A stretch of DNA of 64,000 nt, taken from the NCBI GenBank assembly GCA_030264375.1, contig JASCQW010000032.1, positions 38,513,229 through 38,577,228 on the forward strand, given 5' to 3'. Positions 790 through 30,800 of this stretch are shown in pieces. The notes beneath the pieces are model-generated. The model saw only the letters and a program-made list of their open reading frames with translations. It searched no databases and had not been told where the DNA came from. The DNA is from Carcharhinus longimanus. Taxonomy: Eukaryota. The position numbers and the translations under genes were made by a program. Every line of letters starts with the position of its first letter. Position 1 is the first letter of the stretch.

Positions 790-852
790 TGCCAGAAGTT
801 CCTAAGAAGCCAGTTCCTGAACCATTGAAACCAAAGAAAGAAGCAGAAGAAG
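790..852 (+). CDS. TTN: Titin PEVK exon (63 nt)
   Basis: tttaaag|...|gtattt; phase 1-1; VPEVPKKPVPEPLKPKKEAEE. Confidence 0.92.
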
Positions 853-3800: not shown

Positions 3801-6800
3801 TTGTACTTCTTTGAAATGGTTTATGAAAGAGTACTACTCCATCAGCTGAGAGAAGTTGGTTGGTGGTAATCAGCAAGAAGTTCCTTGACTATGTTTGGCC
3901 TGATAACATGAAACTTCATAGGATGTGGAGTCAATGTTGAGGATTCCCAGTGTAGCTCCCTCCCCATTGTACACCACTGCACCAACATGTCTGATGAGGC
4001 TGACCTGCTGAAGGGACTGTACATAGCCAGAGATGGTGATGCTGGATTCTGGAACATTAACTGAAAGATATAATTTGGTGAGTGTGATTATTATGTCAGA
4101 CTGTTGCTTGATTAATCTGTAGATAGCTCTCGCAATTTTGGCACAAATTCCCAGATGTTAGCAAGGACAAATTTGCAGTGTCAGTTTGGCTGGATGTGTC
4201 TTTATCATTATTCTTGCTTAGGTCAATGCCAGATGATCCATCCATTTTATTTTAAACAATTTCTCCTGCAATATGTGTACATGAGAATAGACAGTACCAT
4301 TTTGCGTTAAATTTCTCTGCCAGGTAGTGTTATTTTAATTTGTTGTTTAGGTGTATTAATGATGAAAGCATTGTACCATAACCAACTTAATATTGTACTG
4401 TTTATTAAAGTGCCGCAAGTTCCCAAGAAGCCTACTCCTGAACCATTGAAACCTAAGAAGGAGGGGGTTCCTGAAAAAGGTACATTACTTTTTGTTGTTT
4501 TTCACACTAGAAATGCTTGTACGAGGCAAAATCTTTGTTCCTATTAAAGGATTAATATACAATTTGATGTCTTAATTGTTGTTATTGCTGCTACACCTCA
4601 CTTGGACAGTTGAGAATCTAACTTCAAGTCCCCAGAGAGGAAAATATATGCCAGAATTATTGCATCAGCTCATTGAAAGGATGACTGACATTGAAGAACT
4701 TATGAAAATTATTCAGATTGGACGGCATTGAGACTGACCCAGATTCATTACTTGCATCTTTACTAATTATAGTATCAGTATTATTTCATATTAACTGTGT
4801 TGTGTGTGTGTCAAATGTGAGTTTCTTTTTGTATAAATGTTCTTTGGTACTTATTTTAAAAATAATTGTTTTTAAAAGTGCCTGAGATTCCTAAGAAGCC
4901 AGTTGCTGAAGCGGAACCGGCAACTGTTCTGGAAAAAGTTGAGATTCCTGCACCAGAAGAAGGTAAAAACAAAGATTTAATAGAGTGGGGGGAAATGCAT
5001 CTTTGGCAGGGGTACATTATGGGTGTTAATGGATTGGACATCCATTACTTCAGCACTCAATTTCATTTTGTGACCCTGCCAAAATTAAATTCTCTTCCAT
5101 GTTTTATATAGGCACCTCTCAGAAGAAATATTTCTTTATTCTTCAAAGTTTCTTTGTTTTTACTTTTGGATATTTCTGTCATTTTCTTTGAAACGATTTT
5201 CTTTTGTTGGGGAAATGTTCATTGGTATGTGATGTCTTTCAATCGTCATTCCCTTTTCATTACTTTTCAAAGTCTTGCCATGTTTTCTGTTAAAACATAC
5301 ACTGTTCACATTGTAGATCTCAAAACATGCAAGCAGAATTTATATTGTAATTATCTAGTAAATGGAAAATATAAACAATGCGTTATGTTGATTACATGGA
5401 AAATAGGAATAAATGTAATAATTTTATCCTCAAATTTCTTCTTATGACAGTTTTAAAGGTGGTTTGAGGGGAGAAATGTTTGTGCAATGAAATGGAATAT
5501 TGTCCATTTCAAACACTCATAATTAGCATCAAGCACTCAGATAGAATCCCACCAACAATGCCCCTTAGGGATCAAGCTTAAAAGAAAGCATTCTGCCACA
5601 CTTCTTTTTTAAACTTCTCTGAATTATTTTGTTGGCTCAAAGTTAAATTGCCAATTTCATTTCACTAAGCAGAGTTCTGTGCTGTGGGCTGGCGCTCACC
5701 AAGGAATGTAGCTGTAGAACCTGCATACAAACAGCAGTTTTTCACTAATTCAGTCTGGGACTCAATTTGAATCTACGTCTAATTGGCTATATCGTTCAAC
5801 TTTGTCAGATTTTCTAAATTGTATTAAAACATAAAAGACACCTAGGGTAGTTTGATTATTTTTCCAAGTAAAATGCCTTGTAAGTTTAAGAAATTATAGC
5901 ATTCCCTTCAACCTTCCAATTGTATATGAAAAAAAAGCTGTATTGTAAATGATAGTAAACAACATAATTTTATGTTTATTCCTTTATTCTGTTTTCTGTG
6001 TTTTGTGTCACTGTACTTATGTTATCTCTATCTTACCAAATACTTAATTTGTCTTAAAAATAATATTTGAAGTGCTTCAAGTTGACAAGAGAGAAAAACG
6101 TGTACCCATCACTATTTCAAGAAAAGTCTCACCCACTTCAGAAAAAGATAGCAAAGGTACAAACCAGCCTATGAATGATGGTATTTGAAAAAGTGTGCTA
6201 GTGTGAGCATTCTTTTTTTTTTAACTGAATGTTACCAGTGCTTAGCTGGTTCATCAGAATTTTTCTTGCGTCACAGTGGTGTCCTTTGTTTCAGTGTCAG
6301 TAATGTAATTCAGTTATGTCTCAGTGTGTAGTCTTGAAATGTTTGTTCTGTTTTAGAGTCATAGAGGCATTGTAACACCAAAGGGGGCCATTGTGTCCAT
6401 GCTGGCTTGCTGTAGAGCAATCCAGTCAGTCCTATCTTCCACTTTATCCATGTAACTCTGAGGTTACTTCCCTCTATCCAATTATCTTTTGAAATCATTC
6501 ATCATCTCCACGACTGCCACCCTCACAGGTAGTGAGCTTCATGTCATTACCACTTGCTGCATAAACATGTTCTTCCTCATATCCCCCCTTTGTCTCTTAC
6601 ACCAAACCTTAAATCTGCCTCCCCTAGTCCTTGTACCATCAGCTAATGGGGACAGCTTTTCTTTATCTACTTTACTTAAACCAGTCATAATCTTATACAC
6701 CACAATCAGATCTTCCCTCAAGCTTATTGCTCCTAGAATAACCCCAGCTTCTCCAATCTAATCTTTTTAAATTAGAACCTTTCTGGTAATCATCTTTATA

Positions 6801-9800
6801 CCTTTTCAAGGGTCCTTCACAACCATCTTAAAGAGTGGTGACCAGAATTTAACACAATTCTCTAGTTGTGGCCTAACCACATAATTCTTCATATTTCCTT
6901 GCTTTTGTATTCAGTATCTCTAATTATGAAGTCCCTAATCCTAATGCTGCACTAACTATTCTTTCAATATGTTCCACCACCTACACAGATCTATACACAT
7001 GAACCATTATTTATAAAGCCCTTTCACACTTACCACAAACTATATAGTAGCTGCTAGGGGAAATAATTATAATTAATTACAATTAAAAAATGTATCTAGT
7101 TGCTTTGAAGAATCCTTTTGACAACATACATGTGAATATATGTCTAAAATCTCAGATGAATACCATAGCATCCAGCACCTTGCATATTCTGATTGGATTG
7201 AAGTGCAGCCGAGAGATAGCATGGCTGTTTGCACATATTCTGCATTGTTCTGCTTGGCAGCATGAAACTTAAGTACATTCCAAATAGCAGATTGTGCTAT
7301 TTAAAGTCATCCAACATGTGAATAGTGTTAATTAATACCTTGGGGATTTTCTGACCATCCCCTTGGCAGAAACTGGATGAGGGGGGTCAGTTAAAAATAA
7401 GGAAACCAACTTATTCCTAGGGTGCCACAGCATTATGCAGAAATGCATTTTAACCTAAGGTTTGTCAACCAGATTGGCATTGGCCTCTGGCTTTAACTTG
7501 CAGACCTTGCCCTGACATGCAGTTGCTCCTCTGGGCCTCACAAGAAAACCCTACATCTTGCCCCAAACTTTGCCCCAGTCAGTATGCTTTCCCCATTCCC
7601 CAACTGTCTCCTGATCAACCTTCCCCAGTGCTGTGCACTATCCTCATTGGTGGCCTCCTGCCACACAAACTGCCACCTGTGCCAGCCAGCTAGCTAGCTG
7701 GATCAGCTTGGAGGCTGGCAAATTGCATATAAACAAGACCTAGAAGTGAAATTTATTGACTGATGACATTCTGTTCACTCCAAACATGGGCTGGTTAGGT
7801 TGATTGGCCATGCTAAATTGACCCTTAGTGTCAGAAGGATTGGCAGAATAAATGCGTGGGATTGCGTGGATAGGGCATAATTGTTGTTGGTGCAGGGTCG
7901 ATGAGCTGAATGGCCTCCTTCTGCACTGTATGGATTCTATGATTCTATATTCACAAGCATCATGTCAAACAAGAATTGGCTTTAACTGCCAATACTGTTT
8001 ATCTTTAATATTCTGTATTAGCAACTTATTTATCATCTAAAGTATCTATTATTATTAAAGTCCCTGAGGTTATGAGAAGTCATATACGCGAAGAAATTAT
8101 AGAAGTTCGTATTGAAGCAAGAGAAAAAATTTCTTCTCCTAAAGGTATATCAAAATCTTTATGTCTGTGGATTGCTGTCCTCTTAATTCTTTTTGTGTTC
8201 CAGTGCCATGCTGGTTCTTCTACCTAAATATCTTTGATCCCTGTTGTTGTGTATTTTATGTCTTGATCTGCCTGTTGTTATGTTATTGTACAGTTGTGTT
8301 TTGGAGAATATTTTGATGTGTTGTAAGTGTCTGTAATATTCACTAAATTAACCTGAATGTATAATTTTGAGCCATAACAAGCATCTGCAAGACATCTTTA
8401 AAGTTCTGAAATGTCCCAAGCCACATTTCAAATAGGAATCAGGAAAATAACCGGAAAAGAAGGAGGAGTGGAAGGGAACAAATGACAAGTTGGTTGAAGT
8501 GATGGGATTCTCAGACAGTTTTCATGGGAAGAGATAGAATGTAAGAGGAGGGAATTCCAGACAATAGGATTTGAGTGGCTGAACATTCAGGAACTGGCTG
8601 GGTCAGGGGAGAAATGGATGTTAAAAAAAAATTCTATAATCAGAGGAATTGGGCACTAAGGTGGGGAGAGTAGAGAGCTGAAAGGGATTAGAGAGATGGG
8701 ATTGAGATCATGATGAGCTTTGGAGACAAACATGTGGGAGTTGTATCTCCTTAGAGTATTTTTTCATCAGCTGCCATTACAGTGACAGGCATTCAGCTGA
8801 AACTTCAAGATGTACAGAGCAGGAGAAATTCTAAAGACATTTTCCCAATTAGATTTTAAATTAAACACTTTGCAATTGGAAAAGAATGTAAACATAGGGA
8901 CATATGTACTGGATAAGTGAGAATTTGTATGAGAAGGATATTTGCAGCATAGTTTTGTACAATTAGCAGCAGTAGAGGGTGGAGAAAGGAAAGTCCGTAA
9001 AGAGAACTTTGGAGTAGTTGAGTGTGTTGAGTGGAGAAGATGTGTATTTGAAATTCAACTGAAAGTAAAATCAGCCTGAATCTATGTTAAATATATTTTT
9101 TTAACAAGAGACAGTCGCTTCATTGCAATTTTATTTTTGGACACTTGGTTGTTCGAGAAAATACTTGAAAATCTCAGCAGGTCTGACAGCATCTGTGAAG
9201 AGAGATGTAGAAGTAATAATTCGCTGTTATAGATTCTAAACATTAACTCTGGGCTGAATTTTCTGGCCCTCTAACAGCAGGCGAGGGAAACAGTGCAGTG
9301 GCAGTTTCCCACCAGCGTAAAATGATGGTGGGATCTTCTGCACGTCATGGTGGGTTAAAATTTCCACCAGAAATTGGCGTAAAACTGATTTGCATTGCGC
9401 TAATGGAATCCAGATGAAGCCACAATTGGAATTGCTCTCCCTGCCTGATCTGTGGTGCTGCCAATGGGAAATCTCGCCGATATACAGAACACATCTGGAC
9501 CAACATGGTGTACATGTCAGCATTTACCTGAAGGCAGTCTGAAAGCTCGCTGTGACCTGAAGAGGAGACAAAGGCCTCTAGCAACCAGACCCCAGAACAC
9601 CAGGTGCAGCAGTTTGAGGCAGACCCCATTAGGAAATNNNNNNNNNNAGGGGTGGGGAATATCAACCATGTGAATCTTCTCCATATAGCAGCTTCCAGGA
9701 AGTGGTTGTTCTCGGTGAAGCAACTCCTCCCAGGATTTGGATCTACAAGCTGCAGGTGAAAGGCTGCAGGAGGTACTGGTCTGTGCTAAGAATGGGAGAC

Positions 9801-12800
9801 ATTAGACAGGGAGGAAAGGAGTGAAGTGGTGGAGTGGTGGCAGGTATTAGGGGAAAAGGAGAGATTCTGCAACGGTTCTGGAATGGGTGAGCTGGTATGG
9901 AACAGGAGAGTGGGAAAGGTCCTGCTGGAGTGCAGGTGGGGGAGCATGTTGTGCATATATGAAAGGGCAGGGAGGTGGTGTAGAGGTGTGAATGGACTTG
10001 GGAGAGAAGAAAGAGAAGGTTTTAAAGGGAGAGGTCAGTAGAGTCAATGGAGAANNNNNNNNNNNNNNNNNNNNNNNNNNNNNNNNNNNNNNNNNNNNNN
10101 NNNNNNNNNNNNNNNNNNNNNNNNNNNNNNNNNNNNNNNNNNNNNNNNNNNNNNNNNNNNNNNNNNNNNNNNNNNNNNNNNNNNNNNNNAATGGGGAAAG
10201 TGATGCGGATTTTGGGGTTGGCAAGATAAGGGGGCATGTCACTCATAACAGAGGGGATTTTCAAGAAGGTAGAGAACTTTTACATTGACCTATACAGACT
10301 GGAAGTCAATAGGGGAGGGATGACCATGGGGTGATCAAAAGTGAATCCTGGAAAGTCAGTTGCAATGGGAGGAAAGATATGGGTGATGAGGGAAGGGGAA
10401 AAGGTATTAGACTCAACTTTGAAGCCATCGACAATCATGGCTGCCAACTATTATTCAGAGCCTCGTGGCGGAGACCTCATGATGCTGCATGAGGGTTGTC
10501 AGGTCAGGGGTGAGCGGAGCTACTGGTCAGCTCAACTGGACAACTGAAGGTGAACCCCAGCACATAGTGCTTACAATGCTAGGGCCTCAACGCAGATAAG
10601 AGTGTGAAGGTAAAAAGCTCAGTATGAATGGGAGACTTCTTACATATGACTCACAAGGATCCTGGCAAAAACTTTTTTGTCTCCCTGCTTGATTCTGGAA
10701 AATGTTGGGTATTTCACTCTCAAGTTTGAGGACTATCACTCTCAAACCATGTCAGCCATGATTAAAATGCAAGTAAACTAAATTTTTAAAAAGTACACTG
10801 AGCGTAACATCACAGTCACCTGTGCAACACTTGTGAACTCTGAACTTCTTAATTATTCTTTCCCCAATACTTCTATTTACTCCCTCAACATCTGCAGCAG
10901 GGGTGGCAGCAGCCTGCTGATCACTTGGCTCTGTTGTCTTGGATGGCTTTGTCACTTTTTGGGCCTTGCCCTCTTTCTGACACCTGTAAGTGAAAGAGGT
11001 GAAAATGGGTGACTGCATGAGCTACCTCCAACCTGGAAGCACTCTTGACCCTGAGCTTTTTATAACACATATTGATCATTATCCAATGGAGGCTGCAAGC
11101 CAGTCTCTCCATCTCAAATTGATCTAACCTGTCTGGCCCTGCCAGTTGGGTTGCCTACTCCTTGACGTTGATCAATTAATTTGTGGCCGACCCAGAAGGA
11201 AAAGTTCCACCCTGTTTCTCTCTCCATATGTGCTGCCAGACCTGCTGAGTTTTTCCTGTATTTTCTTTTATTTCGGATTTCTAACACCCACTGTATTTTG
11301 CTTTTATTTTATATTAATTACTGGCCTAGATAATCTGCCTGTAGCTATTAAAAATTTGTATGTAGCAATAAGAAAATAATTATTAGTTAGTCGGGAACAG
11401 TACCTGAAGCCATAAAAATACAAACAATTCCTTTTCTGAAGGAATTGAATTGAAAAACATTTATGCTAAACTTGCATTGAACTTTGCTCAAATACCCATG
11501 GAGTACTGTGCACAGTTCTAGTCTCCAAATTACTAAAGAATACAAAATGAAAATAAAATACCAAGCATGATACCAGAACTGAGAGGTCATATATATAAAA
11601 AAAAACTGAACAGGTCAGACTCTTTTCCCTAGAAAACAGAAAGTCGAGCGATGACCTGATGGAGGATTTTATAATTATGAAGTGAATTGATGGGGTAAAT
11701 AAAGTGAAACATTTTTCACTTATGGGGGAGTCAAAAACCAAAGNNNNNNNNNNNNNNNNNNNNNNNNNNNNNNNNNNNNNNNNNNNNNNNNNNNNNNNNN
11801 NNNNNNNNNNNNNNNNNNNNNNNNNNNNNNNNNNNNNNNNNNNGGAGAGTCAAAAACCAAAGGAAACAAATAAGACATAGTCATTAATAAATCCAATGGG
11901 GAATTTAGGAGAAATGTCTTTATTCATAGAATGATTAGAATGTGGAATTTGCCACCACATGGAATAGATCACAAGCATAAGATATTGAAAAGGGCAGCAA
12001 GTTAAGTACCTGAAGAAGAAAGATATAGAAATTTATGCAGGTGGAATTAGATGAAATAGAGTGGGAAGTGGCTGAGACATAAATAGCAGCTGAATGGCTT
12101 GTTTTGTTATTGTTGTTTTGTTACATGAAAATTGCTTTTACCATTATCAAAAACTGTAGGTTCTTGTTTTGCTCTTCAAGAAAAAAATCTTTAATGTGGC
12201 TTACAACAGTTTTGATAATGTCTTTAAAGTGCCTGAGATTGCCAAGAAACTTGTGCCTGAAAAAGTTACTCCAATCACACTTACAGAAAGCAAGGAAATA
12301 GCTTCAGTAAAAGGTACAGAAGTGAGAGTACTTTCACCTGTATGGTTTTCTCATATATGTTACTAATGGTAACTTTAATGTTCCACGGGCTTTTTCCAAT
12401 AACAAATAATATCATCTCTGTTTTTTGTTTTTTCATTGTTTTATGTGGTTTGTTCTGGTGATAATCTTGTGTGGTTTTATCTTTACATTCTGATTTTTGT
12501 ACCAGTCTTTGTAGTAGTGTTTTTGTATTTTATGTGTTAATATTTGTGTCATCTTATTCATCTTATTCTACACTCTTTTTAAACTTAAACTTGTATGTTT
12601 TTGACCTTTATCTAAAATTCTAAAACTTTTTCTTCAACCTCTGAAGCTTTCAAGAAGATTTTACATGAAGAGACTATTGAAGTTGACAAGACTGTTCCGT
12701 ATGAGAAAATTATTGAGCACGATGAGATGATCTTACCTGAAGAAACAATTCAAACTGATGAGACAATTTTACCTGAGGAAATTGAGCATGATGAGATATT

Positions 12801-15800
12801 ATATGAGGAAAGTGCCGAGTACGATGAGATGATATCTGAAGAAACTGTGCAGGATGCTGATAGAATTTTACCTGAGGAAATTGTTGAGGCAGATGAGGAG
12901 ATTTTAGATAAAGAAATTGTTGAACCTGACAAGGTGACTTCATATGAACAAAGTGTTGAGTTCTATATGGGTTTACCTGAGGACACTGCTCAGCTTGAGG
13001 AGATTATTTTACCCAAGAAAATTATTGAGGCTGGTGAGAAGACTTTACATGAAGAAATTGTTGAAGCAACACTTCCAGAAAAAAAGAAATTTATTTCAGA
13101 GAAAGGTATAGAACTATTTATTAGAGGATTATATTTTAATCAGCTGCAACATCTCATAACCAATGGAAATGTCTGTGATTTTTAAAGTTTTATTTATATT
13201 CTCTGTGGGCCCTCTGTTTACTCACAGTACTGCTGTCTACAATATTGACACCTATATTTCAGATGTTCTCTAGTTACACTGGCTCTATTATTTCCTGTCT
13301 TTTATTTTTAATACCGTATTGTAATAGTTATTGAGTAGTGAAAGAGTTTGTGAGTTCAGTCATTTTTACAAATTCCCCAGCAAAACTAAACTTTGCCTAA
13401 CTAGCTAACTAAAAATTCACATAAGTAACAGTTTAATATTTGCCAGATGAAGCAAACAGTCTCTTCCAGTAGGGACATCCTCCCATTATCTGAGCTTGGA
13501 GAATTTAAACCCTGACTTCCAAGAGCCAAAATTGGAGACTAATCAACTAAAACTGTGCAGTGTAACGTAAAGAAGTATTAGGAATCGTCTACCCGCTCTG
13601 AGATCATTTCACATGGTACAGTATTGACTTTCTGAGTACAAATGAAAAAATTCCATGGAGTAACTAGCACTCAAAGGTTATTTGCTTAACATTTTTTGAA
13701 TGAAGTTAAAGAAATATGTTTACTGTTTCTTAAGTATCTCACATGTTCAGTTGCCTGTTTTTAATAATAATAGAAATTTTGTATACATTCACTAAATATT
13801 TAAACAAAATATTTTTTGAAGTGGCTCCAATTACTGAGAAGATTGAACCTAAAGGTGATGTTCTAGTCACTGCTCCAGTGAAGCAAGATTTGGAACCAGT
13901 AGAAGGTATACAAATCAATGTCACTCATTGGCTTGTGTCATTGGTGCAAAATCCATGAAACTTTCAACATTTCAATGTCTTTCACTTCCATTACATCTCT
14001 TCATCTGCATTTCATCTTTCTTGTGGTTCATTATTTCATTGCTTAATTGTCTATGCTTGCTTTCAACTGTTCTTCATTTTAATTCTGTCACTCAGGCCTT
14101 GTTCTTACAATCTAATTAGTAAAGGAGCATTTGTACTGAAAGAAAAATTTTCTGGCCACATACAAGATACGACTATGAAAAATGAAGTTCAAACCCCCAA
14201 CCTATCCAATTACTTATTTTGGTTTGTTTGTCATGAACAATAGTTAGCAGGTTACGTAATTTTAATGTGAGTAATATTTCCTCCACGACAGCAAAGAATA
14301 AACAAGAATTTTAACTGTCCAAGGACTCTATCAAGACCATTGCACAATTGACCAATCATGTGGCGTGCTTAAACCCTAAGGAAAAGTGTACTTCCCAAGT
14401 TTTTCATCCCTCTGACCTGGGTAAACTGGCAAAATTCAGCATCAAGTGGAAAGTTGGGAAACAAATGCTTGTCAAAATTAGACTGATGCTGAACTCTAAT
14501 AGTTTGATGCACCCTAGCTGTTGAACCAGGGAATAATTTGGGATAATATTCCATGTAATTATGCTTTTCAAGAGTTGACTTTAATGGTAATAAAATCTTT
14601 GAATTGTTTTTAAAGTGCCTGAAACTGAAGAGGTACCTGCTACAACACTTCCTATTTCTGCTCCAGGACCAGTCAAGAAACCCCTTAAAGGTACAATTTA
14701 TCAAAAGCTTGAACCTTAATTTACAATGGCAAATTTTAAAATACCTTACTACATAATATGTTGATATACAGTTTAGTATTTTTTTTCCTGAATGTTAAAT
14801 GGTAAAGTTATGCAGAACTTAATTGCACAGATTTCTAAATGTTGTGTATTGGTTGTATCAAATTGTCTTCAGTCTATTTAAAAAGTTACAATTCATGTAT
14901 CTTGTCTCTTGTGATCCCTTCTGTTAATGTGTTTATTTGGAAATTTTGCTGTCTATGGGTATGTTTTACAGTGTGTTTAATTTGGTGAACTCACCAATTT
15001 AGTTTGGAGATGATGACATTGTTTGGTTTTGTTTAAATGTTAGACTGTTCTTTTACGGAATTGCAAAAAAAGTCCTTTTTGATGTGTCACTAAATTATAT
15101 ATGAAACCTTTATAGCTGCAGAACAATTCAAGCCATCTTTGAAACTAAAACCTACAGTCAAAGTTCCAAAGGAAGTAGAAGATATAGAAATTTCAGTACT
15201 GAAGAAAATTAGTAAGCTTCCCAAGGAAGAGAAAGATGAAGATGAAGGCATTATATTAAAAAAGGTGGATAGCTCTCCTAAAGAAGAAGACAAGTACATA
15301 GGGGTAGAACTTAGGAAACCGATTAAAGGTCCTGAGGAAGTGGAAGATGAAGAACATGTATCACAAAAGAAACCAGATGTAATCTTAAAAGAGAAAGAAA
15401 CAGAAAGAGAAATAATATTGCAGTTGGTTGATGAGATTCCTAAAATAGATAAAGATTATGGAAAAGGTGTATCAATAAAGAAATTAGATAAAATTTCTAT
15501 TGAACAAGATGATGCATACAAAATGTTACCAAGGAAAGGTACCAAAGCACAATCCAAAGAAATGGAGGAGGAGCCGGGTACACCACTGAAGAAACCTGAT
15601 AAGATCACTAAGCAAAAGGAAGAAGCGGAAAAGATATCACTGAAAAAGCGTGACACAGTCCCTAAAAAAGAAACATTAAAAGAAAAACGCATAATATCAA
15701 AGAAACTACCCAGTGATGAAGAAGATAGAAAAAAGCAAATAATATTGGAAACAGTTGGTGAAGTGCCTAAAATTGAAAGAGGCATAGAAAAGACTGTGCA

Positions 15801-18800
15801 TTTAACCAGAACAGAACCAGTTCCTATGAAGGTAGAAGACAGAGAAAAGATATCTGTGAAGCGTACCCTAGTTGCTGATACAGAGAAGGATAAGGCGAAG
15901 ATAATCCCATTGAAGGAACCTAGTCAAAGCCCTATAGAACAGAAAGATGAAGACAAACATTTGGCACTGAGAAAAGATAGGACATCGCCTCAGCTTGTGG
16001 AGAAAAAGGAACACCCTAGTCTCAAGAAAGTTGACCTTCCTAAAATTATTCATGAAAAGACCAGGATTGCACCATCTCTTGAAGAAGAGGCACCCAAAAG
16101 TATAGAAATTTACCCAGTCGATAGGATACCCAGGAAGACTGCTCCTGAAGAGCCTGCATCAAAATTGGTACGAGAGGTTACTGCAGAAGAGGCTGCCGAT
16201 ATTACCAAGACAACATATGAAAAGAAAATGGTACCCTCCAAAGAAAAACCTCATGAAACACCTTTAAAGATTGGAAAAGGGAAAGTTCTGGTTTCAAAAG
16301 AAGAACAGGAAACAGCTTTACTGAAAAAAATTCCCTCAAAAGGAAGTGCATTTGATGCAAAAGAACCACAAAAGATTCACAAATTACCTGAAAAGGATGT
16401 GGCAGCTTATAAAGAGAAAACACAAATTATCCCTACTAAAATGGATAAAGGGAAAGTATCTGACGAACAGGAACCAGTGCAGTTAGAAAAATTCCCCTCG
16501 AAAGAAATTCTGTTTGAAGATAAGGAATCAGAAAAAATAAAGAAAGTTCCTGAAAAGACATCAGTGATCCCTACAGCGAAAGTTGATGAAACACATTTTA
16601 AAATTGCAAAAGGAAAAATTCCTGTTTTGGAAGAACAGAAAGATCACATAGAGCTGAAGAAAGTTCCTTCAAAGGAAGTTGTAATAGAAGAAAAGCCACA
16701 GAAAGTACCAGTAAAGAAAGAACTGACACCCAGGGATATATCTGATATTGCACATCCTAAAATTAGAAAGGGAAAAGTACCAGTGTCAGAAGAAAGAGAT
16801 CAAGCACAGGTGAAGAAGATTCCTTCAAAAGAAGCTGCGGTAGAAGAAAAGCCACAGAAAATACCAATAAAAAAAGTACTGACACCCAGGGATATACCAG
16901 ATACTGCACATCTTAAAATTGGGAAGGGAAAAGTACCAGTATCAGAAGAAGAAAAAGATCAAGCACAGATAAAGAAAATTCCTTCAAAAGAACCTGCAGT
17001 GGAAGAAAAGCCACAGAAAATACCAATAAAGAAAGTCCTGACACCCAGGGATATACCTGATGCTGCACATCTTAAAATTGGAAAAGGAAAAGTGCCAGTG
17101 TCAGAAGAAGAAAAAGATCATGTACAACTGAAAAAGATTCCTTCAAAAGAACTTCCAGTGGAAGAAAAGCCACAGAAAATACCAGTAAAGAAAATACTGA
17201 CACCCAGGGATATACCTGATACTGCACTTCCTAAAATTGGAAAGGGAAAAGTACCAGTGTCAGAAGAAGAAAAAGATCAAATACAGCTAAAAAAGATTCC
17301 TTCAAAAGAACTTGTGATGGAAGAAAAGCCACAGAAAATACCAGTAAAGAAAGTACTGACCCCTAGAGATGTGGCACACCTTAAAGCAGGCAAAGGGATT
17401 CCATCAGCTGTTGAAAAAGAATTGGAACTAACACAAATTAAAAAAGTTCCCTCTGAAAGCATCTCAACAGAAGATGACTACGAAGTAGAATCAGAAGAAA
17501 TGTCAATAGAAGAATTACAGGACAAAGGAGACTGGGAATGGGAATTAACTGAAGAAGAGGAGGAATATGGCTCATCTGTTGACTGGGAGCATGAAGATGA
17601 TGAAGAGTTTGAGGGTGCAGTTGAGACTCCTTCAAAGCCTTACAAACAACGAGGTGAGATGGCTGCTGCACATCTACCAAACTGATTGTTCATATCTTGT
17701 GCTTTGGAAAATAGATCAGTGTTCTTTGTTTTTGTTTGTGTTCATCTTTTGTCAAACATCTTTGTTTGTCCTCGCAATGCAGCTTGTGTTTATGTGCATG
17801 ATGTATCATGGTTGTCAAAAGTCTGTCAAAAGGTTGTTAAAATTCATGTCTGTTTCTTGTGTTTGGTCCATGTGGTCCTATGCTTCCCAAAGAAAAATTG
17901 TCTTAATTTGCTTTGTCGTTTGCTATTAACAGAGCTATGGGTGAATTAAAATCATTTTTCATTTACATCATTGAAGGCACAGGCTTCAGCAGACCTTCCA
18001 AATAGTCTGGTTTCACATTTTTCATTCAAAACTAATTATGTCTTTTTCTTCATTTTACATCTCCTCTGGCCGCATGAGTAAACCTTTGTTTAGTGTATTA
18101 AACAAGTGGTAGTGCCATTTTTGATTTTTCTTTTGCCTGTATTACAGATTATCAATATGTAAATATATTTTTCCATCTAAATACAATACACTTTCTGAGC
18201 CTCATTGTTTCCACCCTAAGGTTATAACAGAAGCATCTTAACATATAATAATTTGGAAGGATAGTCTTGACATGCCGATAATTATGTTACTATCTCACTA
18301 CAGATGCTAAGACACCAGCAGATGAAGCCGGCAGGGGTAGAGGCTTCCTCAGAGGTGAGAGGGGATATCAAGCACTTAGTCACAACTAAGGATCCATGCA
18401 TGATTGTACACATATATTTGTTTCACAAGCACTACCAAACATTAAGTTGCAAACACATGCAATATTCCAACATAACATGCCAATTTAAGACAAATCATTG
18501 AATTATACTGCTGTTAAACAGAACTTTATTTAAATTTAATTCATATATTAGTAAAAAGAAATCCATTAAGTGTTATGGTACATTTCAGTTATTTTAGAAC
18601 TTAATTTGTCATATCAATTTGCATGCTCTTCCGATTACAAAAATGATTGTGGCTGCGTAGACTCGATAGCAAACCCTAGATTAATATTGCATTGCTTACT
18701 TTTGCATGAACTGTCCTCTCTTTATATGCTTGCAGCTCCAAAGAGTAATAATTGAAGTTTAAATATACCTATTTACCAAGCATGAGTAATCAGTTTGTAT

Positions 18801-21800
18801 ACTGCACCTGATTATTGGCCAGAACTGATGTTGGTGGAGGAGAACTTAGCATGAAAGCTAAATGAAGAAACATACACAATGTTTCAATGTCCTGATCGCC
18901 TTACTAGAATCTAAAACTTTAATGCATGCATTTCATTTTCTATTTGCGTGAAAACTTGTGTTTCTGGCTGTATTGAGTAGTTCCTACTTGAATAAAATTA
19001 TGCTGCCTGAAGACTGATTATGAATCATTGGTGCTCCTTGGCAAATAGCAAATATACCAGTGCTGAAATTATATTGGCTGTATATTATGCAAATCTTACA
19101 ACCTGAAAGCATGATGAAATGCGTAGACTTTGAAGGATGAGTTTCAATGCACCAATTTACCTCAGAAAACCAAGTTTACAGAGTTTGATCTCTTAGTCAG
19201 TCAGTCACATTGCTCTGCTTGCATCACTCTTTTCTTTTCCAACTGAAAATGGCACATGGCATCTAAATGTCTGGTTCGCATCAAACCATCTTCAGAAGCA
19301 TGCAAAAAAAAGCAACAAGTAAAACTGAATATATTTATGTTCAACTCTAAATTTTAGCAAAAAAGACACCATCGCCTGGAGAGGGAGACAAGAAGCCACT
19401 TAAACCGGGTGGAGGAAGGCCACCCTCAGAGGAACCACCTTTTGCAGGATTCCAGCTCAAAGCAGTCCCACTGAAATTTGTCAAAGAGTTGAAAGATATT
19501 GTGCTGGAGGAAGCTGAGTCTATAGGGTCTTCTGCCGTCTTTGAATGCCAGATCTCCCCATCTACAGCATTAACATCATGGATGAAGGATGGAAGCACTG
19601 TGAGAGAAAGTCCTAAATACAAATTTACCTCCGATGGCAAAGATAGAAAGTTACAGATTATTGACGTGCAGCTTTCAGATACTGGTGAATATTGCTGTGT
19701 TGGTCGCCTCGGCAAACAAGAAAAGACATCCACAGCAAAACTAATTGTTGAAGGTACTGAGCGTTGCTGTTTGAGATATTTCACAGCATAAATCATGAGC
19801 AAGACTGTGCAATGTATTAAAGTTGTGCAACTTAGGAACCCTGCTGAATAGTTACTTTCAGTCTAATTACTAAGGTCAAAAGGTCATATACACTGTTACC
19901 ATGTTATTTCACAAGATTCATCAATTCAGTGTAATCCAAGTACTAGATTTGGATCTTTTAGATGTTATGAAAAGCTTTTGCCATTTTGTATAATATGAAT
20001 ACTTTGTTTTTTTTATCGAAAATTAATTGATATTTTCCCAAAACATTTTAGAATTGCCAGTGGCATTCTTTAAAACATTGGATGAGGAAGTAACTGTCTT
20101 CAAAGGACAGCCCCTGTATTTGACCTGTGAGCTGACCAAAGAAAAACCAGTGGTTTGGAAGAAGGATGGTGAACCTCTTGAACCCACATCTGACAGATAC
20201 ACAATTAGCGTCATTGGGCTGCAGCATTCGATTACCATTCCAAGTTCAGATTTTGAGGATGCTGGAGTGTATTCTGTTGAGACTGCTAACATAAGATGTG
20301 AGGGAAAAGTTAATGTACAAGGTTAGTATGTACGTCTTCATATATTTGAAGCAGCAGTAAAGGGATTTGAGGATTTGGTTTTAGCTTACATATTTTTGTC
20401 CATTGTAGAGATTGTGAGGAAGTGGTTTGTTAAACCTGTTCGGGACCAGCGGGTCAAACAGAAAGAAAATGCCGTTTTTCAATGCGAAATTGCAAAAGAC
20501 ACACCAAATATTAAGTGGTTCAAAGGAGATGAGGAGATTCCAATGGAACCAAATGCAAAAACTGAAATTAAGAAAGTTGGCAAAATTCTTACTCTCACTG
20601 TGAAAAATGCAACACCTGAAGATATGGCTGAATACACAGTGGAGGTGGAAGGACAAGCTTCTACAGCCAACCTGTTTGTTGATGGTAGGTATTCTATTAC
20701 TTGGAGAAATGTGCACTCCTTTGCCCTACCAGCACTGATGATCAGTATTAGAAATAATTTTAGGTGGGGCACACACCACTTGTTCATATGTTTAATCTCT
20801 ACTGTCATAATGTTTAGTCACCATTGTGAATCTCTGTCAGGATTTTCTGTTCTTTTCCTACATGGACTAAAGGAATGTAGCAGCAGGCTTTAGTCACAAG
20901 TGGCCTTTTGAGCTAGATCCTGAACTTCATAGGTACTGACTTGTAGGTAACACTACAGTCAAGTTACTAGTTTAATAAAATGTTTCCTATGTTGCTTATC
21001 ATCATGAAATAGAAATCTCTGATAATTTTTTGACATTCCAATTCTAAAATTAAGTAATTTTACAACCAATGGAAAATTTCAACCTTTACCTACACAATTA
21101 AACCGAATCCTATCTACCCTAGTCCAGTCTTTTTCCAGCAATATCCATGACTCTTTCAATGCCCACAGTCACTTTAACAGTCTCCAATTTTCTAGTGCTA
21201 ATCATCTTCCCTTCACCATGGACATATATTCTCGCAATATCTCCATCCTCCACCAGAGTAGCTTACATTAACACTGCAATGAAGTTACTGTGAAAATCCC
21301 CACACTCTGTTCAGACCAATGCACCTAATCAGCATGTCTTTCAAACTGTGGGAAGAAACCAGAGCATCGGGAGGAAACCCACGCAGACACAGGGAGAACA
21401 CACAAACTCCACGTGGACAGTGACCCAGGCCAGGCAAATCTGGGATCCTGGCGCTGTGGGGCAGCAATGTTAACCAGTGTGCCACCATGCCACCCCCTGA
21501 AACCCACTGGATCTCACAGCTACCTTGGTCATACTGCCTCATTCCCTGTTTCGATAAGGACAGCATTCTATTTCCCAAGATTCCCCGTCTCAATTGCACC
21601 TGATGATGCAACTTGACATGGTACCACTTCTGTGCCATCAGCCTTCATATTCAGTGGATCATCCGCTGCTGTTTGCACTACCTCCACTCACCAAACACCT
21701 CTATCCTCCTCTCAGCTTTCACCACTTCGCAGGAACCCTACCCTTCATTACATTCCTAATTCTAATTGCAGATTGTTGTTGCCAAGTCTGGTATATGTTT

Positions 21801-24800
21801 TGCAAAACAAGTGGAAATCATACAAATCAGAAATTCACAATCAAGAAAACTTGTGTAGACTTTTCAAGTCTGCTTTTGATGGTATTACTTGTGGTTGGAT
21901 ATTTTCAGCCTGCTGTTCTAATGGGAAAATGACATTGAATGTTCTATTTTAGAACGGGAGATAGACATACTTTCAGAATTGCAAAGCGTGGAAGTGTATG
22001 AGAAAGAGACAGCCACTTTTGAAACTGAGATCTCTCAAGACGTTCCAGTTGAGTGGAAGCTCAAGGGAGAAATCCTCCGCCCGTCACCTGTAAGCTTTTC
22101 TTCAAAGCTTGAATCTTTGTCATTAAAAAAGTGGAATTCAAGATTGTAATACTGTTTTGTAAAAATGTACCTAAATTATGATGTTTTTAAAAATTTCAGA
22201 CCTGTGAAATGAAAGCAGATGGTGCAAAACGTTTCTTGATCCTTCACGATGTCAAACTGGACCAAGCTGGTGAAGTTGTCTTCAAGGCACGCAATGCCAC
22301 ATCCATTGCTTACCTAAGAGTTAAAGGTAACTAATAATCCATAAAGAAAATGTCAGCGCAGTTTTATTTATGATGAAAAAAGATGAGAAATTTTAAAGTA
22401 GTTTGTTTTTTGTTTGATTAAAATGTAATTTTGCTTGCAGAAATTGAACTTGACTTTGAGGCACCACTAAAAGATGTGACTGTTCCTGAAAAGCACCAGG
22501 CACGATTTGAGTGTGTGCTTAACAAGGAGGTTCCCAAAATTCTGTGGTCAAAAGGTACCGACATTCTTAAGGCTGGTGATAAGTATGATTTAGTTGCTGA
22601 TGGAAAGAAACACATCCTTGTTATCAATCAGTCAACCTTTGATGACGAAGGAGATTATAGCGCTGAAATTGTGGACAAGAAATCGACTGCAAAGCTCACT
22701 GTAACTGGTGAGTCCTTTTAATTAATTACATTTCATAGTTAAACAATTTGCTGATTTAATGTGTTGGTAATATTTAATTGATCTGACCTCAGTTTGGCTT
22801 ATGGTTTGGTAATGTGATAATGTATTTGTGAAGCCTTACTTAAATATTCTGTTGATGATTTTTACATTGTCTCTAGTTGACTTAACTTCTGTTTTTCTGA
22901 AGCACTGAGAAACCTGTATAACTAAAGATGGAGATCCATCATTCAGAATATCACATACGTAGTATCCTTCTTGTGCAACATGAGGCCATTAAGTTTGCAC
23001 TGACCCTCCAACAGGGCATCTTACCCAGGCCAACCCCTGTAACCCTGCATATTTAGCATGGCTAATCTACCTAACCTGCATGTCTTGGGACTGTGGAAGG
23101 GAACTAGAGCACCCAGAGGAAATTCATGCAGACATGAGGAAAATATGCAACATGCAAACTACATGCATATAGTGACCCAAGGCCAAAATCAAACACGGGT
23201 CCCTGGTGCTGTGAGGCAGTAGTGCTAATCACTGCACCACAGTGCTGCCATATTAGATCAAAGCCCAGGACTGATCCGGGTTTGGGGAGTTCCCTTACTC
23301 TAATGCCAGGCTAGTTAGGCCACTTAAAAAGTACTATATTAAAGAAAGAACTTGTATTTATTTCATCGCTTTCTTCATAGTTTAGATGTACCAAAGCTCA
23401 ATGAAATACTTTTGAAGTGTAGCTCCTGTTGGAATGGAGGGAAATAGCAGGGTATAAAAATGTCAATTTCAGTTGATTTATTAGTTACACGATTTTGAAC
23501 TGTACAGTAACCGATCCATGCATTACTTCATATTTCAGGCATGAGGTTGAAGTTCATTACGCCACTGAAAGATCAGACAGTCAAAGAAGGTAACACAGCT
23601 CATTTTGAATTTGAGCTTTCGCATGAAAATCTCCCAGTGACCTGGTACCGGAATGAAGACAAAATTCACCCAAGCAGAACGGTTCTGATCTCCACTGATG
23701 GGAAGAAGCATGTATTAGAAATTAAAGAAGCAACTCTTGATGATACATGTCAGATACGAGCAGAAGTTGCTCAACTATCCACAAAAGGACAACTGAATGT
23801 CATTGGTAAGAATTTAGTAAAACAATGGTTTGGAATTCTGTTGTGCAGAATGCAATACTAACTGAGGGTGCAGAGAATAAGGCTGAGGGGGCTCCGGCAT
23901 TGACATGAACAGGAAATTCATGTCTGACCTCCAGCATTGGGATCAAAGGTCCAAATTATTCTGGCAGTTGAGGGAAGCAAGCCAGCAAAACTGACACCAA
24001 ACAGCAAGAGGGTAATTTTACTGGTTTAGCACATCCTTATAACTCATTAACATGGAAATTTTTGTGATTGAATAGTAGCTTTAAAATTAACTGTGAACCA
24101 CATGGGATCACGGGTCTTCAGTTGCCCGGTTGTTTAAACTTGAAAGTGAGCAGGCAGTTTAGTCTATGAGAGGAAGGTGAGCCACTTAGACCCGCCTGCC
24201 ATTTTCAGAACAAAGAGGAGGCTATGATGCATCACAGGGAAGATGCAGTCATTATAGAGAAGGTGAGAATCTTTGCAAGAATCTGAAGGTCTTTTGAGGA
24301 GGATGAGAGTCATTGTGGGGAGGTGAAAGGACATCTCAGGAAGGGAGAAGAGTCACTGTGGGAGGACAAGGGCCATCTCTTGGTGGTGGGGAAGGGAACA
24401 AGAGCAGATTAAATTGCCCGCAGGACCTTGGTGACACATTTCAAACACAGGTACCAGGTGTTTCCTGAAGACTAGGGACACAATGAAGGACATATCTTTG
24501 CCAGGGCAGCGTTGCAACATTTGTGAAGTTTTTAGACCTTACCATGGTCTTGGCCTCTTGGTGTTCCTGGAACCCTTAGTGAAGAAGTAGCGGTAGTCTG
24601 GAACTTCAAAGGAACAAATGGTAGGAGGCCATTGTAAAGTGACTCAGCCTGTGGTTGGATCAAACAGTAAGAACTGTTAACAGGAAGCCCAAAGTGATGC
24701 AGTCAGGTGACAACCATTGCTGCGTTTCACAGTATACAGGCCTTGCCTGAATTATCTTCAAATATCAGAGGAATGATGCCAACAGAAGTTCTGAATGTCT

Positions 24801-27800
24801 TGGGAAGCCTTTATGTACCAGTGCGTCCTGCTACAGAATGATCTGCAGCACCTGGAACTTTGAAGAGACCCAATTCCTGTGACTTTGATGGGCTGGTATC
24901 ATTAAACTTCTACGCCAATGGCTGTTTCCAGGGTGTCACTGGAGATGTGTGGCATTTATGAGGCAGCCGCTCACCACTGTGTCATCAAAGTGATCAGTTC
25001 CCTGTTGAAGAGAGCCAGAGAGTTAGTGCAATATACGACTGACAAAGAGAGCCATGCCAACAATCTGTGGGCTTCAGGACCAGTGCAGGATGTTATCCAT
25101 TGAATCCATATGGCAATTAGGGCTCCCTGGGAGCAGCCTGTGCTATTTATCACCAGAAGTGGTCCAGCCCATTCACTTGCAATTGGTGTGGGACCCAGAG
25201 GAAACAAATCTTCAGCTTTGTGCTTCAGGTTTCCAGAAATTTCACAAGATGCATACATTCCACACCCCACCCAGATGCCACAGATCTTCAAGATCACTAC
25301 ATGCCTACACACATATATAATCACAGAAACAATGCACCATTCCAGCCAAGGAGCATTATAATGAATGCCATTGATCAACAAGAGCAATGGTTGAGTAGAC
25401 CATTGGCTTGTTAAAAATAAAGTATCTAGACTGCTCTTGCAGGACTCTACAATTGGTATCTCAGTGTGTCTCTGGGATTAATGGCACCTGTGTGCATTGC
25501 ATAACCTTGCAGCAAAGGGAGGAGGCCTTTGCTGATTCAGGAGCTTGGGGAATCACACTCCTCATCTGATGATTAAGATGGAGAACAGGGAGCAGAACAG
25601 GCAGATCATCAGATTGAAGCTCCTTCACCAGGTGCAAAGGCAATGAAAAGACCCACAAGAGAAATCCATGAGCTCCACACTGACACCAGATTCCAGCAGG
25701 CAAAATGCTTTGACAAGCCTTCTGCTTTAGATCTTATGCTCATGCGACCTCCAAATGTCCTTCCAACAGCAACCATTATCCATCAAGAAGTAACATCATT
25801 CTTGTCACTCCAACCATGGAGAAGTCAATAGTCTGCTTTCACTGATATATACATGCAACTTATTCTGCAAGTACCCATATGGCTAACCAGGGGACAACAT
25901 TAGCATCATCCAAAATACAGAAATAAAGGAAATAAGAATATTTAATCACATGCTATTATAAGCTATCAACATGGTGCATCTACATGTGGTCTCTCATGCT
26001 ATCATGGGTGCTCTGACTTGGTATCACTTCAATGTCAACAGCTGAGGTGGAGAGAGAATGGTTGTGCTCATTCTTGTTGCCCTCTCTGCTTGTTTCTGCC
26101 AAGTTCTGAATTCTCCATAGTGATTCCACTGTGCGATGCCCCATGCCTGCGATGACCTTGGTGACCATCCTTTGATTGCCTGAGCCTAGAAGATCCTGGC
26201 AAGCTGAGGGACTCCTGCCTGGATGCTGATGTTTCTTTCATTGCCATGGTTACTGGAGGCGCTAGAGCCAGTGATTGAGGAGCGGCTGCTCACCTTCTGA
26301 GAGCCCTGAGAAGAGCTTCTAGGAGAGGGAGCCTGGTGCTTCTCCTTCATCTCTCTGCTTGACAGCAGCTCCCTATCCACTTGAGGAAGAGGGAGACCTC
26401 GAGGAATGTCCAGTCATCTCATCCCCCTCTTGCCTGGTCCCTGTTGCAAAGAGCTCATGGCCAATGCAGCAATGACCAGGTCCTGCAATGTCTGCCGGTC
26501 CGAGTACATACCCAGCAGCAACTGAATGGTCTGCTGAATCTGACTCTGCCTGATGGTCACAGCCTCTCCATGGAGAAAATCATGCCTGAGACATGGGCAG
26601 AATGCTTGGTCAGAATAGACTCCTCCATCATCTGCATATGCCTATACATGGCAGTTCTACTAGATGTTCCTCTGTCTGTTTTTCCATCACCAGAAGGTTT
26701 TTATTGCCTGTCACCAGAGACCCATCATCTGCTAGATGCCCTGTTTGGACCTGGCTTCCAACAATCCTCTGACAACCCTCAGCTGTTGAAGCTTCTATCA
26801 GCTGTTCGGGCATGTCTGGTATGTTCATTCAGTCTGATTCTGAATGGTTATCACATTCATCGAGGTGAATGTATCTGCACTGATACATGCACCCCTGAGT
26901 CTTCAATGTTATCCTCCTCAAAACTGAAGGGACATGAATGACAGAGCAGTTCCCTCCAGAATGCAAAGAACACCAGTGGAGAACACAAAGAATTAGATTC
27001 ACATTTTGTTCAGGTGTGAAGGGCCAAATGACCTACTCCTGCTCCAATTTTATGTGTTTTTTATAATCTCACTTCTCATCCCTTTCTGATACATGTCTCC
27101 TTTCTGTCCATTGATGGACACCAACTGGAGACTTCTTCTGTCTCTTCAGTCCCATTTCACTGTCTTCTATTGCTCAGCTGCCCCGCTCTCTGTCCAGGCT
27201 CATTGTCTCCTCCTGTGCTGATATGTGATCTAATGTTAGCCACTGCTCCACCCACCTTTTTTTGTTCTTTGCTGTGTGTACTATGTTTTCCTGAGGACAG
27301 AAGGGGAACAAATCTCTGCCTAATGGACATCTGACCCCCTGATCATCACGCATTCCTCTGGCAAGGTAATGGGGCCTGCTGGTTGTCCATTCTCATGACA
27401 TTTGGACAACAGTGGAAGCATGAACCTTAAACTTGGCGGCCACAGGCATTCAAGCCTCATCTTGTATCTGATGCTGGGCCTTACACTTCTTTCACCTGTC
27501 TTCCTACTCCTTCCTCTCACTGGGGCACATTGCACGTTGCACTCATGAGAGCGATTTTGTTCCAAACATTCAGTTATGCTCACCCTGGAAACATGGAAGA
27601 GGTAGTTGACCCTCTTTCTTCATTCACCTTTGTTCATGTGAGCCATGTGCCACTCCCTGCATGATGCTGATCGCTGATGAGGCGAGAAGTCTGAAGCATG
27701 AACTTGAGATGCTGTTGCAAGAGAGAAAGTTGAGGCTGAAGGCATTGTCAGGATTCCCTTTTGCCTCTGCTACATTGAAGCTTCTGCGTTGTAGTCACTG

Positions 27801-30800
27801 TCACTCAGAAACGGTTCCTGGACCCCTGACTCTATCAGCTGGTTGGCGTCTTCCTTCCAGCTCCCATTGCAGAATTGGCTGGGCCTGGACACCATTGCTT
27901 TCATTATCCAAAGCCACCATGTAATTATAGTTGGCCAGTTATCCCTGCCAGTAATGACAATGTCACTCACTCCAGGTCTGTCGCTGGTTGGCACACTACG
28001 ATGACTAAATTCTGCCTGATATGTTGTGTACAATCCTCTGTGTAACAGAACAGATAAAGAAATGATTTTAAAAAAGAGGGCATCAGGTATTCCTGATGAT
28101 TCACTTCTTGAAATGTTTTAACTGTTAACAGGTGTGAGACTCTTTCTCTTCAGGCAGTAAATTAGCTGTTTGTCTCTCATCCACAGAGGCTGATCCTTAT
28201 TTCACTGTGAAACTCCAAGATTATACAGCTATCGAGAAAGATGAAGTAACTCTTGAATGTGAACTCAGCAAGGACGTGCCTGTAAAATGGATGAAGGATG
28301 GCAAGGACATCATAGCTTCAAAGACAGTTTCAATGAAGGCTGTTGATAAACGCCGTATTGTGACGATCAAAAAAGTTGACAGTAAAGACAAGGGTGACTA
28401 TGAATGTGACTGTGGAACGGACAAGACAAAAGCCACTTTGAATATTGAAGGTATCGAACTTCTGACTGAGTACAAGTAGATTCTTCAACAATTATAAAGT
28501 AACATTCTTTCCAAATGTTCAGTTTAAACATCCATTTTTAACATTGTCTGCAGCTCGCATCATCAAGATAGTGCATCCATTGCATGGTGTAGAAATCTTT
28601 GAAGGTGAAACTGCGCACTTTGAAGTGGAGATCTCAGAAACAGATGTGCATCCTCAATGGAAGCTGAAGGGCGAAAGTTTGTTTATGTCACCTGTAAGTT
28701 GTTTCCTTCATTTATCTCAAAGTTAAGCATTCCTACCTCCTATGTTGGAATTATTTGGTAATAAATGATTTCACTTCAGAATTATGTTAATTTAATTAAA
28801 CATTATAAAATCAACTTCCTAATAATGTTCAGTAGAACTCAAGGCCCTGAATATTTGTTCCTCAAGAAAATTTTGGGGTAAATTTTCTACAAATAAACAT
28901 CAACCTAAAATATCTTGGGTGATTTTGTATTGGCAGCAATGTGAGATTATCGAGGATGGCAAGAAACATCTCCTTACCCTCTACAATTGCAAGCTAAGTG
29001 ATTCTGGAGAAGTTTTCTTCCAGGCTGCTAATGCTAAGTGCGCAGCTAATCTGAAAGTCAAAGGTAATTTTTAATACATTTGGAAGAATTTGTTACTTTT
29101 TTCTGAAATTTGAATAATTGTAATTCAGGCTCGTAATGTAGTACTATTGTTCCATTAATTGTATGTGTGATTTACATATGTTATATCAGCATATTAAAAT
29201 ATATATATAGGTATGTAATACATATTGTATATATCTATTTGAATAATTGGTCATTTTTTACTTCCTACACTCCCATTCAGAAATTCCACTCACTTTCATT
29301 GTACCACTTAATGATGTGAAAGTATATGAGAAAGATGAAGCGAAGTTTGAGTGTGAAGTGTCCAGAGTGCCCAAGACTTTCCGTTGGCTAAAAGGAATTG
29401 AGGAGCTTAAACCTAATGAGAAATTTGAAATTCTATCAGATGGGACAAAACATATGTTGACTGTTAAACAGGCTGCATATGATGATGAGGCAAAATATAT
29501 GTTTGAAGCAGAGGACAAGAGGACAAGTGGCAAACTGATTATCCAAGGCAAGAGAATGGAGCAAAAACAATGTATGAATTCCTTAGTTAGTTTTCTTGGT
29601 GAGGCGGCTTGCATTTGATTAAAAATTCCTTTCTTCATAGGCATTCGACTTGAATTTACCAAACCTCTTGAAGACCAGACTGTGAAAGAGCGTGAAAGTG
29701 CAGAATTTGTCACTGAACTTTCTCATGACAACATACCGGTTGTGTGGTACAAAAATGACAAACGACTGCATCCAAGTAGGTCCGTGACTATGAAAGATGA
29801 GGGTAAAGTCCACTCCATTACATTCAAAGATGTGACTATTGATGATACTTCCCTCATCAAAGTCGAAGCTATGGCTAAAAGTTCGGAGGCCAAGCTTACT
29901 GTAATCGGTAGGTATTGCATATGGAAACGTGTGAATGAATTTTGCTCACCAAACTTTGACACATTACATTTGTTGTTTGACTTTTTCTCTAATTTGCCTT
30001 TTTTTCTGGTTTTCTTAGAGGGTGACCCATACTTTATAAACAAACTGCAGGATTATACAGCTGTAGAAAAGGATGATGTTATCTTCCAGTGTGAGATCAG
30101 TAAATCTGCTGCTCCAGTTAAGTGGTTTAAGGATGGAAAAGAACTGATTCCTTCAAAGAATATTCAGATTAAAACGGATGGGAAGAAGCGTATACTGATT
30201 ATTAAACGGGCTCAGAAGAGTGACCAGGGACAATATTCATGTGACTGTGGCACTGATAACACATCAGCCAAACTAAACATTGAGGGTAAGAGTTTATTGA
30301 TAGCATTTAGATACCCAATATCCTTTGCCCTTTGTATCTGTTTATTGTGGTGAGTGAACTTGCATTTTTAGTAAATTAGATGAAATTATTTTTAGTTACT
30401 AGTAATGTACTTTTCCAGGAAAATAACATTTGCACATTATTTTGCTTCAGAACGTGATATTAAGATATTACGTCCACTGTACAGTGTTGAAGTCACAGAA
30501 ACAGAAACTGCTCGTTTCGAGACTGAAATTTCTGAAGAAGATGTACATGGCAATTGGATGTTGAAGGGGGAGAAATTGCATCCATCTCCTGTAAGTTTTA
30601 AACATTAGACAAGCGCTGAGGTTTCTCTTGTCTTTTTTCTCCATTTCTTTCTTGCTGTCTTCCTTCCTTAAAGGTTTTTCTTTTTTTTCCTTAATTTAGG
30701 ATATTGAGATTAAAAAGGAAGGCACAAAACATTTTCTTACACTGTACAATGTGCACATGGATCAAGCTGGTCAAGTTGAATTCCAGGCTGCCAATGCCAA

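Follow-up and report, generated by a model that had tools for sequence, protein, structure and literature searches.

A giant cassette exon and its splicing

The window analyzed here, 64,000 nucleotides (nt) of Carcharhinus longimanus (contig JASCQW010000032.1, positions 38,513,229 to 38,577,228), carries on its plus strand the distal PEVK region of titin followed by immunoglobulin (Ig) and FN3 exons, while the exons of the Z-disc, the proximal Ig region, the large unique sequences, the middle Ig segment, N2A (locus L007) and the small-exon PEVK (L006-L003, continuing into the window) lie within the 200 kb upstream. After N2A and the small PEVK exons, and before an Ig exon at 19358, lies a single very large exon, which thus occupies the PEVK position of titin. 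We propose, with a probability of roughly 0.6, that it encodes a splice-switched, all-or-none disordered spring, whose inclusion would make the I-band longer and softer. The exon and its parts are as follows:

15116..17653, plus strand: giant cassette exon of the distal PEVK, 2,538 nt = 846 codons, phase 1-1, AG/GT, stop-free frame
15145..16074, plus strand: N-half (residues 11-320), ~17 degenerate 18-19-residue units in ~55-residue blocks, net charge near neutral
16075..16266, plus strand: spacer of lower regularity (residues 321-384), from the translation
16267..17454, plus strand: C-half (residues 385-780), seven ~53-residue units and a partial eighth, net charge +22
17455..17628, plus strand: acidic tail (residues 781-838, 58 residues), 28 D/E versus 1 K/R, three Trp

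The first-pass annotation of this stretch had described one symmetric exon of 846 codons, and that description holds for splice sites, phase and the absence of stops. It had, however, ended the exon at 17420, whereas the true donor lies 233 nt further, after 17653, and it had overlooked the acidic tail. The acceptor reads ...TTTATAG/CTG at 15116 and the donor GAG/GTGAGA, and no other GGTRAG donor-like site was found within the exon. An assembly artefact was considered and rejected, as the repeat copies differ by ~14%, the exon contains no N and an independent RNA run aligns to it at ~96%. About half of the sequence words of a 5.2-kb stretch also occur in DNA runs of other organisms (word matching, unaligned).

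The neighboring exons that matter for splicing are the following:

14616..14690, plus strand: upstream PEVK exon, 75 nt, joined to 18304 in transcripts lacking the giant exon
18304..18354, plus strand: downstream PEVK exon, 51 nt, from RNA contigs
12647..13105, plus strand: acidic polyE-like PEVK exon, 459 nt, 49 D/E of 153, retained in the skipping contig
19358..19753, plus strand: final PEVK stretch and first distal Ig domain, containing FQLKAVP (Pfam I-set E 1.8e-13; top PDB matches are titin structures)

Neighbors of 63-84 nt, as originally noted, are indeed the rule, but the 459-nt and 51-nt exons stand among them. The 459-nt exon itself contains a short degenerate repeat (Tandem Repeats Finder, TRF; period 18 nt at 12721-12776).

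That the giant exon is optional had been suggested from the letters alone and is borne out by RNA. The alignments come from contigs of four of 11 listed runs, X1, X2, X4 and X5, which represent two studies; X4 and X5 seem to stem from a single data set, and X1 belongs to a separate study of a relative that is ~96% alike. In X4/X5, a contig of 1,415 nt spans small exons, the 459-nt acidic exon and the sequence up to the Ig exon. The gaps left unaligned in the contigs, 211 nt in X4/X5 and 51 nt in X2, equal the lengths expected for skipping of the giant exon, and the read depth in bins over the 51-nt exon agrees with this. Exact, in-frame skipping of the giant exon is therefore shown in the RNA contigs of one study. 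Parts of the exon left uncovered in X2, X4 and X5 were not counted as evidence. In X1, five listed pieces span 982 of the 2,538 nt of the exon at a depth of 2.6-9, compared with 4.5-5.8 for Ig exons, whereas three nearby bins that are entirely intronic have no cover. Mature mRNA that includes the exon is likely to exist. One further X1 contig (contig 6), with ~57 nt upstream of the 51-nt exon unplaced, was counted neither as inclusion nor as skipping. The RBM20 core motif TCTT showed no clear enrichment in the flanking introns (upstream 4 versus 3.8 expected; downstream 11 versus 7.1, reached by 47 of 500).

Repeats, composition and selection

Both halves of the exon are repetitive, as the first-pass annotation had recognized. 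Autocorrelation of the N-half, described as a degenerate repeat of ~18-19 residues, has its maxima at 55, 18 and 19 residues (z ~5), and nine of ten pairs of its blocks score above most shuffles (0-17 of 500 reach them), the tenth pair not. The C-half, described as a 53-residue repeat, peaks at 53 (z 18), 19 and 34 residues, and its seven aligned units, each made up of ~19+17+17 residues, are 44-84% identical to a reference unit. Its last five units share 86% DNA identity and hold one LKK(I/V)PS-type and one (I/V)KK(V/I/E)LTP-type motif; TRF reports 4.9 copies of a 159-nt period at 16592-17360 with 86% matches. A common origin of N-half and C-half units was not detected, as four of four units align no better than shuffles. 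The two halves nevertheless alternate between basic and acidic residues with nearly the same period, 18.0 residues in the N-half (reached by 2 of 500 shuffles) and 17.7 in the C-half (0 of 500).

The PEVK content of the exon is 50.5%, which exceeds the 40% rule of PMC12063666 but falls short both of 0.54, where PEVK_Finder sets its cut-off (PMC6469411), and of the ~70% reported for human PEVK (PMC12241362); the charged fraction is 0.40-0.46, and Pro makes up 8-11%. AlphaFold2 run on single sequences returned mostly coil (predicted local distance difference test scores 49 and 48, predicted template modelling scores 0.12 and 0.14), a result that lends weak support to disorder because no alignment stands behind the model. 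Composition and these models together predict that the exon encodes a disordered polyampholyte. The acidic tail at 17455-17628 has a character of its own: directly after the last IKKV, it carries two Trp-acidic motifs ~15-17 residues apart, and a 155-nt RNA piece of X4/X5 spans it. In this it resembles the Trp-containing acidic end of the VCA regions of WASP, as well as paired kinesin-light-chain motifs, with no central helix evident.

Comparison of the repeat copies suggests constraint on the encoded protein. The ratio of non-synonymous to synonymous rates (dN/dS) between copies ranges from 0.11 to 0.49 in all six pairs, estimates that are rough because they compare related copies and rest on few changes. 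Among the X1 differences listed (40 of 66 rows), 21 fall in the giant exon, 10 synonymous and 11 non-synonymous, where the sites stand at 1:3.76; all eight differences examined in Ig exons are synonymous. One X1 contig also has a 12-nt in-frame deletion in the exon. Judged from such sequence comparisons, the giant exon appears to be under selection as protein.

Searches for homologues gave no match among proteins of 1482-4230 aa, proteins of 465-1481 aa or 1.84 billion cluster representatives; since full-length titins lie outside both size ranges and representatives may lack the exon, this null result is no proof of novelty. A profile of the repeat found only three chance matches among PDB sequences (E 1.6), and in a search of the shark's own genome the repeat was confined to the giant exon. 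Literature listings and abstract openings mention neither such an exon nor LKK repeats in titin. The giant cassette exon, with a repeat family of its own, is real and probably undescribed.

It might be argued that such an exon is a near-neutral repeat expansion, rarely included and of little functional weight. Its skipping in the main contigs of one study, the missing homologues, amino-acid change above that of the Ig exons (11/21 versus 0/8 X1 differences) and the 12-nt deletion would all fit this idea, as would elephant-shark PEVK clones of 372-774 aa, too short for such an exon (PMC12241362). However, a frame free of stops over 2.5 kb, with an old and diverged N-half, dN/dS below 0.5 in every copy pair and X1 cover at the depth of neighboring exons are hard to reconcile with it, and we consider it very improbable.

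Hydrophobic-KK motifs and actin binding

Roughly 20 hydrophobic-KK-hydrophobic motifs had been noted in the exon. The enrichment is strong, although the count was slightly high: [LIV]KK[LIV] occurs 16 times, [LIV]KK 19 times and [LIV][KR][KR] 23 times, and the 15 occurrences of [LIV]KK[IV] compare with a shuffle mean of 1.04 and are reached by none of 5000 shuffles. An LKK(T/V)-like core is matched only loosely, as strict LKK[TV] occurs three times. Twelve of the 15 [LIV]KK[IV] fall in the duplicated C-half and arise from repeat copies, so the motifs are not independent; residues 1-345 alone hold three, against 0.46 expected (49 of 5000 shuffles reach this). FQLKAVP, put forward as a similar motif at the PEVK end, was rejected as a further copy: it has no KK, marks the entry to the Ig domain that begins the distal series and, in the titin tandem structure 7AHS, matches by alignment the linker and entry of an Ig domain.

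The same motifs separate the giant exon from its small neighbors. In 31 candidate small PEVK exons (880 aa), which were picked automatically and include a few over- and under-calls, [LIV]KK[IV], PKK and VPE occur 0, 21 and 25 times, compared with 15, 1 and 1 in the giant exon, which therefore forms a sequence class apart from PPAK-like exons, as had been supposed. Its periods of 18, 53 and 55 residues likewise differ from the 26-28 residues of PPAK, and hydrophobic-KK takes the place of PKK/VPE. Pfam PPAK had no match on the giant exon, a weak test because one of the genome's small PPAK-like exons likewise went unrecognized by Pfam.

A WH2-like signature, also claimed for these motifs, did not stand. 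The giant exon resembles WH2 and beta-thymosin in its hydrophobic-K-K-hydrophobic core, predicted disordered chain and tandem repeats, but it lacks the upstream amphipathic helix and places Pro or bulky residues straight after the core. The hallmark of WH2 is a helix of 9-10 residues ahead of LKK(T/V), and a WIP fragment with LKKT but without the helix was reported to bind more than 1000-fold more weakly (PMC7407642). With E values of up to 10 allowed, Pfam found no WH2 or Thymosin match on the full exon or on seven pieces of it, and no other family passed its cut-off, where a control WH2 scored 37 bits, and the Pfam WH2 search of the genome gave 18 places, none within the exon. An upstream helix pattern of two hydrophobes plus one was present in 18 of 18 genome WH2 matches and 0 of 23 titin motifs, a test that is partly circular because the 18 were chosen by the Pfam model. 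In the 12 residues upstream of the core, titin motifs average 1.3 Pro and 3.4 acidic residues versus 0 and 1.2 in WH2; upstream L/I/M/F number 1.1 versus 3.4, and the helix cost is 0.69 versus 0.41. A profile built from the 18 genome WH2 matches scored them at 12.7-35.9 bits when each was left out in turn, and the titin motifs at 6.0 bits or less (21 of 23 scored). With the helix pattern absent from all 23 motifs and both profiles negative, we reject WH2 identity. A weak, lysine-mediated contact with actin would still be compatible with this failure. Since PEVK binds F-actin without canonical motifs (PMC12295887; PMC8553726), a degree of drag would be expected even if no special motif were present.

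Could the motifs nonetheless form a helix-less multivalent tether, in which some 20 of them meet the acidic surface of actin, spaced to successive subunits, and act as a viscous brake? Their enrichment here and absence from small PEVK exons speak for it, as do the net basic C-half (+22) and the fact that none of the 21 listed X1 differences falls on the first three motif positions. Eighteen extended residues would span 5.6-6.8 nm, near the actin subunit spacing of ~5.5 nm, but the match is purely arithmetic. Two repeat families that cannot be aligned share the hydrophobic-KK and the 18-residue pitch, which a spring explains poorly. The KK of WIP faces the acidic actin residues D24/D25, E99/E100 and E334, yet helix-less LKKT loses more than 1000-fold in affinity (PMC7407642). 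The missing helix pattern, the upstream segments with Pro and acidic residues, the low profile scores and the scarcity of strict LKK[TV] weigh further against a tether, which we regard as unlikely. Doubtful, too, is an extension of this idea, a splice-switched 'LKK-only' actin ruler in which ~20 motifs at an 18-residue pitch, matched to successive actin subunits, would through avidity zip the distal spring to the thin filament, and S/T next to most motifs would serve as an off-switch. If true, this would make it the first actin-binding repeat defined by sequence within vertebrate PEVK and a natural reagent for the titin-actin brake.

The S/T residues could also have a role of their own. In 15 of the 23 [LIV][KR][KR] motifs an S or T stands five residues past the hydrophobic residue, where S+T make up 10% of the exon, and the pattern hydrophobic-K-K-x-x-S/T fits a CaMKII, PKC or PKD type consensus, although these kinases usually favor Arg at -3. 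An array of such basophilic sites, read from the motifs, might alter the charge and stiffness of the chain, in line with reports that phosphorylation by PKC-alpha and CaMKII stiffens human PEVK (PMC8553726). Twelve of the 15 sites, however, lie in the duplicated C-half, and at the sixth motif position the N-half has S/T in only three of nine. We think a phosphorylation-tuned array improbable as the main function; moreover, it would be compatible with the spring rather than replace it.

The proposed spring and known systems

In the spring that we favor, inclusion would add 296-321 nm of contour length (846 residues at 0.35-0.38 nm per residue), an estimated ~80% more than the ~1,000-1,100 residues that the remaining PEVK exons supply together. 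In the ~18-residue basic/acidic alternation, which would set the stiffness and solubility of the chain, the conserved hydrophobic-KK positions likely represent the basic half. As in other PEVK, contact with the thin filament would likely be a weak, electrostatic and salt-sensitive drag, with no WH2-type docking.

Several observations weigh against this spring. No inclusion junction is present among the RNA alignments listed, and pre-mRNA could account for part of the X1 cover. The skipping study has only pieces of 172 and 155 nt inside the exon, at a depth of 2.4-3.9 versus 7.5-12.8 for the skipping contigs. The residue at the motif's first position is fixed as hydrophobic before KK in two repeat families that cannot be aligned, for which a plain spring has no obvious need. 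The PEVK total behind the ~80% estimate comes from the automatic scan with its few over- and under-calls, X1 contigs may sit on the wrong repeat copy, and the roughness of the dN/dS estimates counts here as well.

The closest likeness in architecture is found in insects. PEVK length is tuned by splicing, and Drosophila Sallimus has giant single PEVK exons, 31 and 32, under splice control; exon 32, of ~1700 residues, sets I-band length, and its deletion shortens the protein by ~0.5 um (PMC12063666). Sallimus is an insect I-band titin, and the analogy is one of architecture only. Vertebrate titin, by comparison, tunes its spring through dozens of small exons, whereas here a single splice choice would shift PEVK length by ~80%, as in insects; with such a switch, shark muscles or stages would be expected to fall into two classes by I-band length and passive stiffness. 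The giant exon shares with the PPAK and polyE exons of vertebrate PEVK the same gene and place, phase-1 symmetry and alternative splicing, and is like them, if less clearly, in its P, E, V and K content and its predicted disorder. It differs in being one exon of 2,538 nt, where mammalian PEVK-N exons average 93 nt (PMC6469411). Its regular, recently duplicated 53-residue unit would offer a clean substrate for asking whether sequence or charge governs PEVK-actin binding.

Elephant shark connectin is comparable in being a single cartilaginous-fish titin with a spliced PEVK and an expanded 6-Ig middle segment, but its PEVK forms are of 372-424 aa in heart and 634-774 aa in skeletal muscle, and the available text of that report describes no giant PEVK exon (PMC12241362). 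The PCR clones behind these forms would likely favor short ones. In the present titin, a regular-expression count gives 55 Ig motifs in the middle segment; if a few lost in gaps are allowed for, grouping by eye yields about eight repeats of 6 Ig plus one of 10 Ig. The same pattern has been reported for a shark, whereas elephant shark has six of the 6-Ig repeats, and human and zebrafish have three (PMC12241362); it points to an elasmobranch. An internal Cronos promoter is known in zebrafish, mouse and human (PMC4720518) and, if conserved, may sit in a distal Ig intron at 20000-40000 of the window.

Other parts of this titin and genome have features of their own. At least six near-identical small PEVK exons point to recent duplication (L003:4203-8902; window 790-852 and 4411-4479), and RNA contigs of organism A join small-PEVK copies running 'back' on the window, which suggests extra copies or another order there. 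A 159-nt PEVK exon at L004:4014-4172 contains a stretch of 6 residues repeated six times in tandem. DFRxxL-type motifs followed by basic residues, resembling the actin-binding DFRxxL of smooth-muscle MLCK, occur at L007:5937 (the end of the first N2A Ig exon) and L017:2993-3130 (a large proximal exon). The genome also has a dozen actin-like genes (L028-L039), whose coding sequence lies mostly or wholly within a single open frame and some of which form tandem pairs. Among them, L030, on a 0.9-kb contig, has the look of a cytoplasmic actin of non-vertebrate type and may be contamination. Finally, PEVK introns at ~7780-7950, 9150-9210 and 11220-11310 of the window show very high RNA depth over an interspersed repeat, likely a short interspersed nuclear element (SINE).

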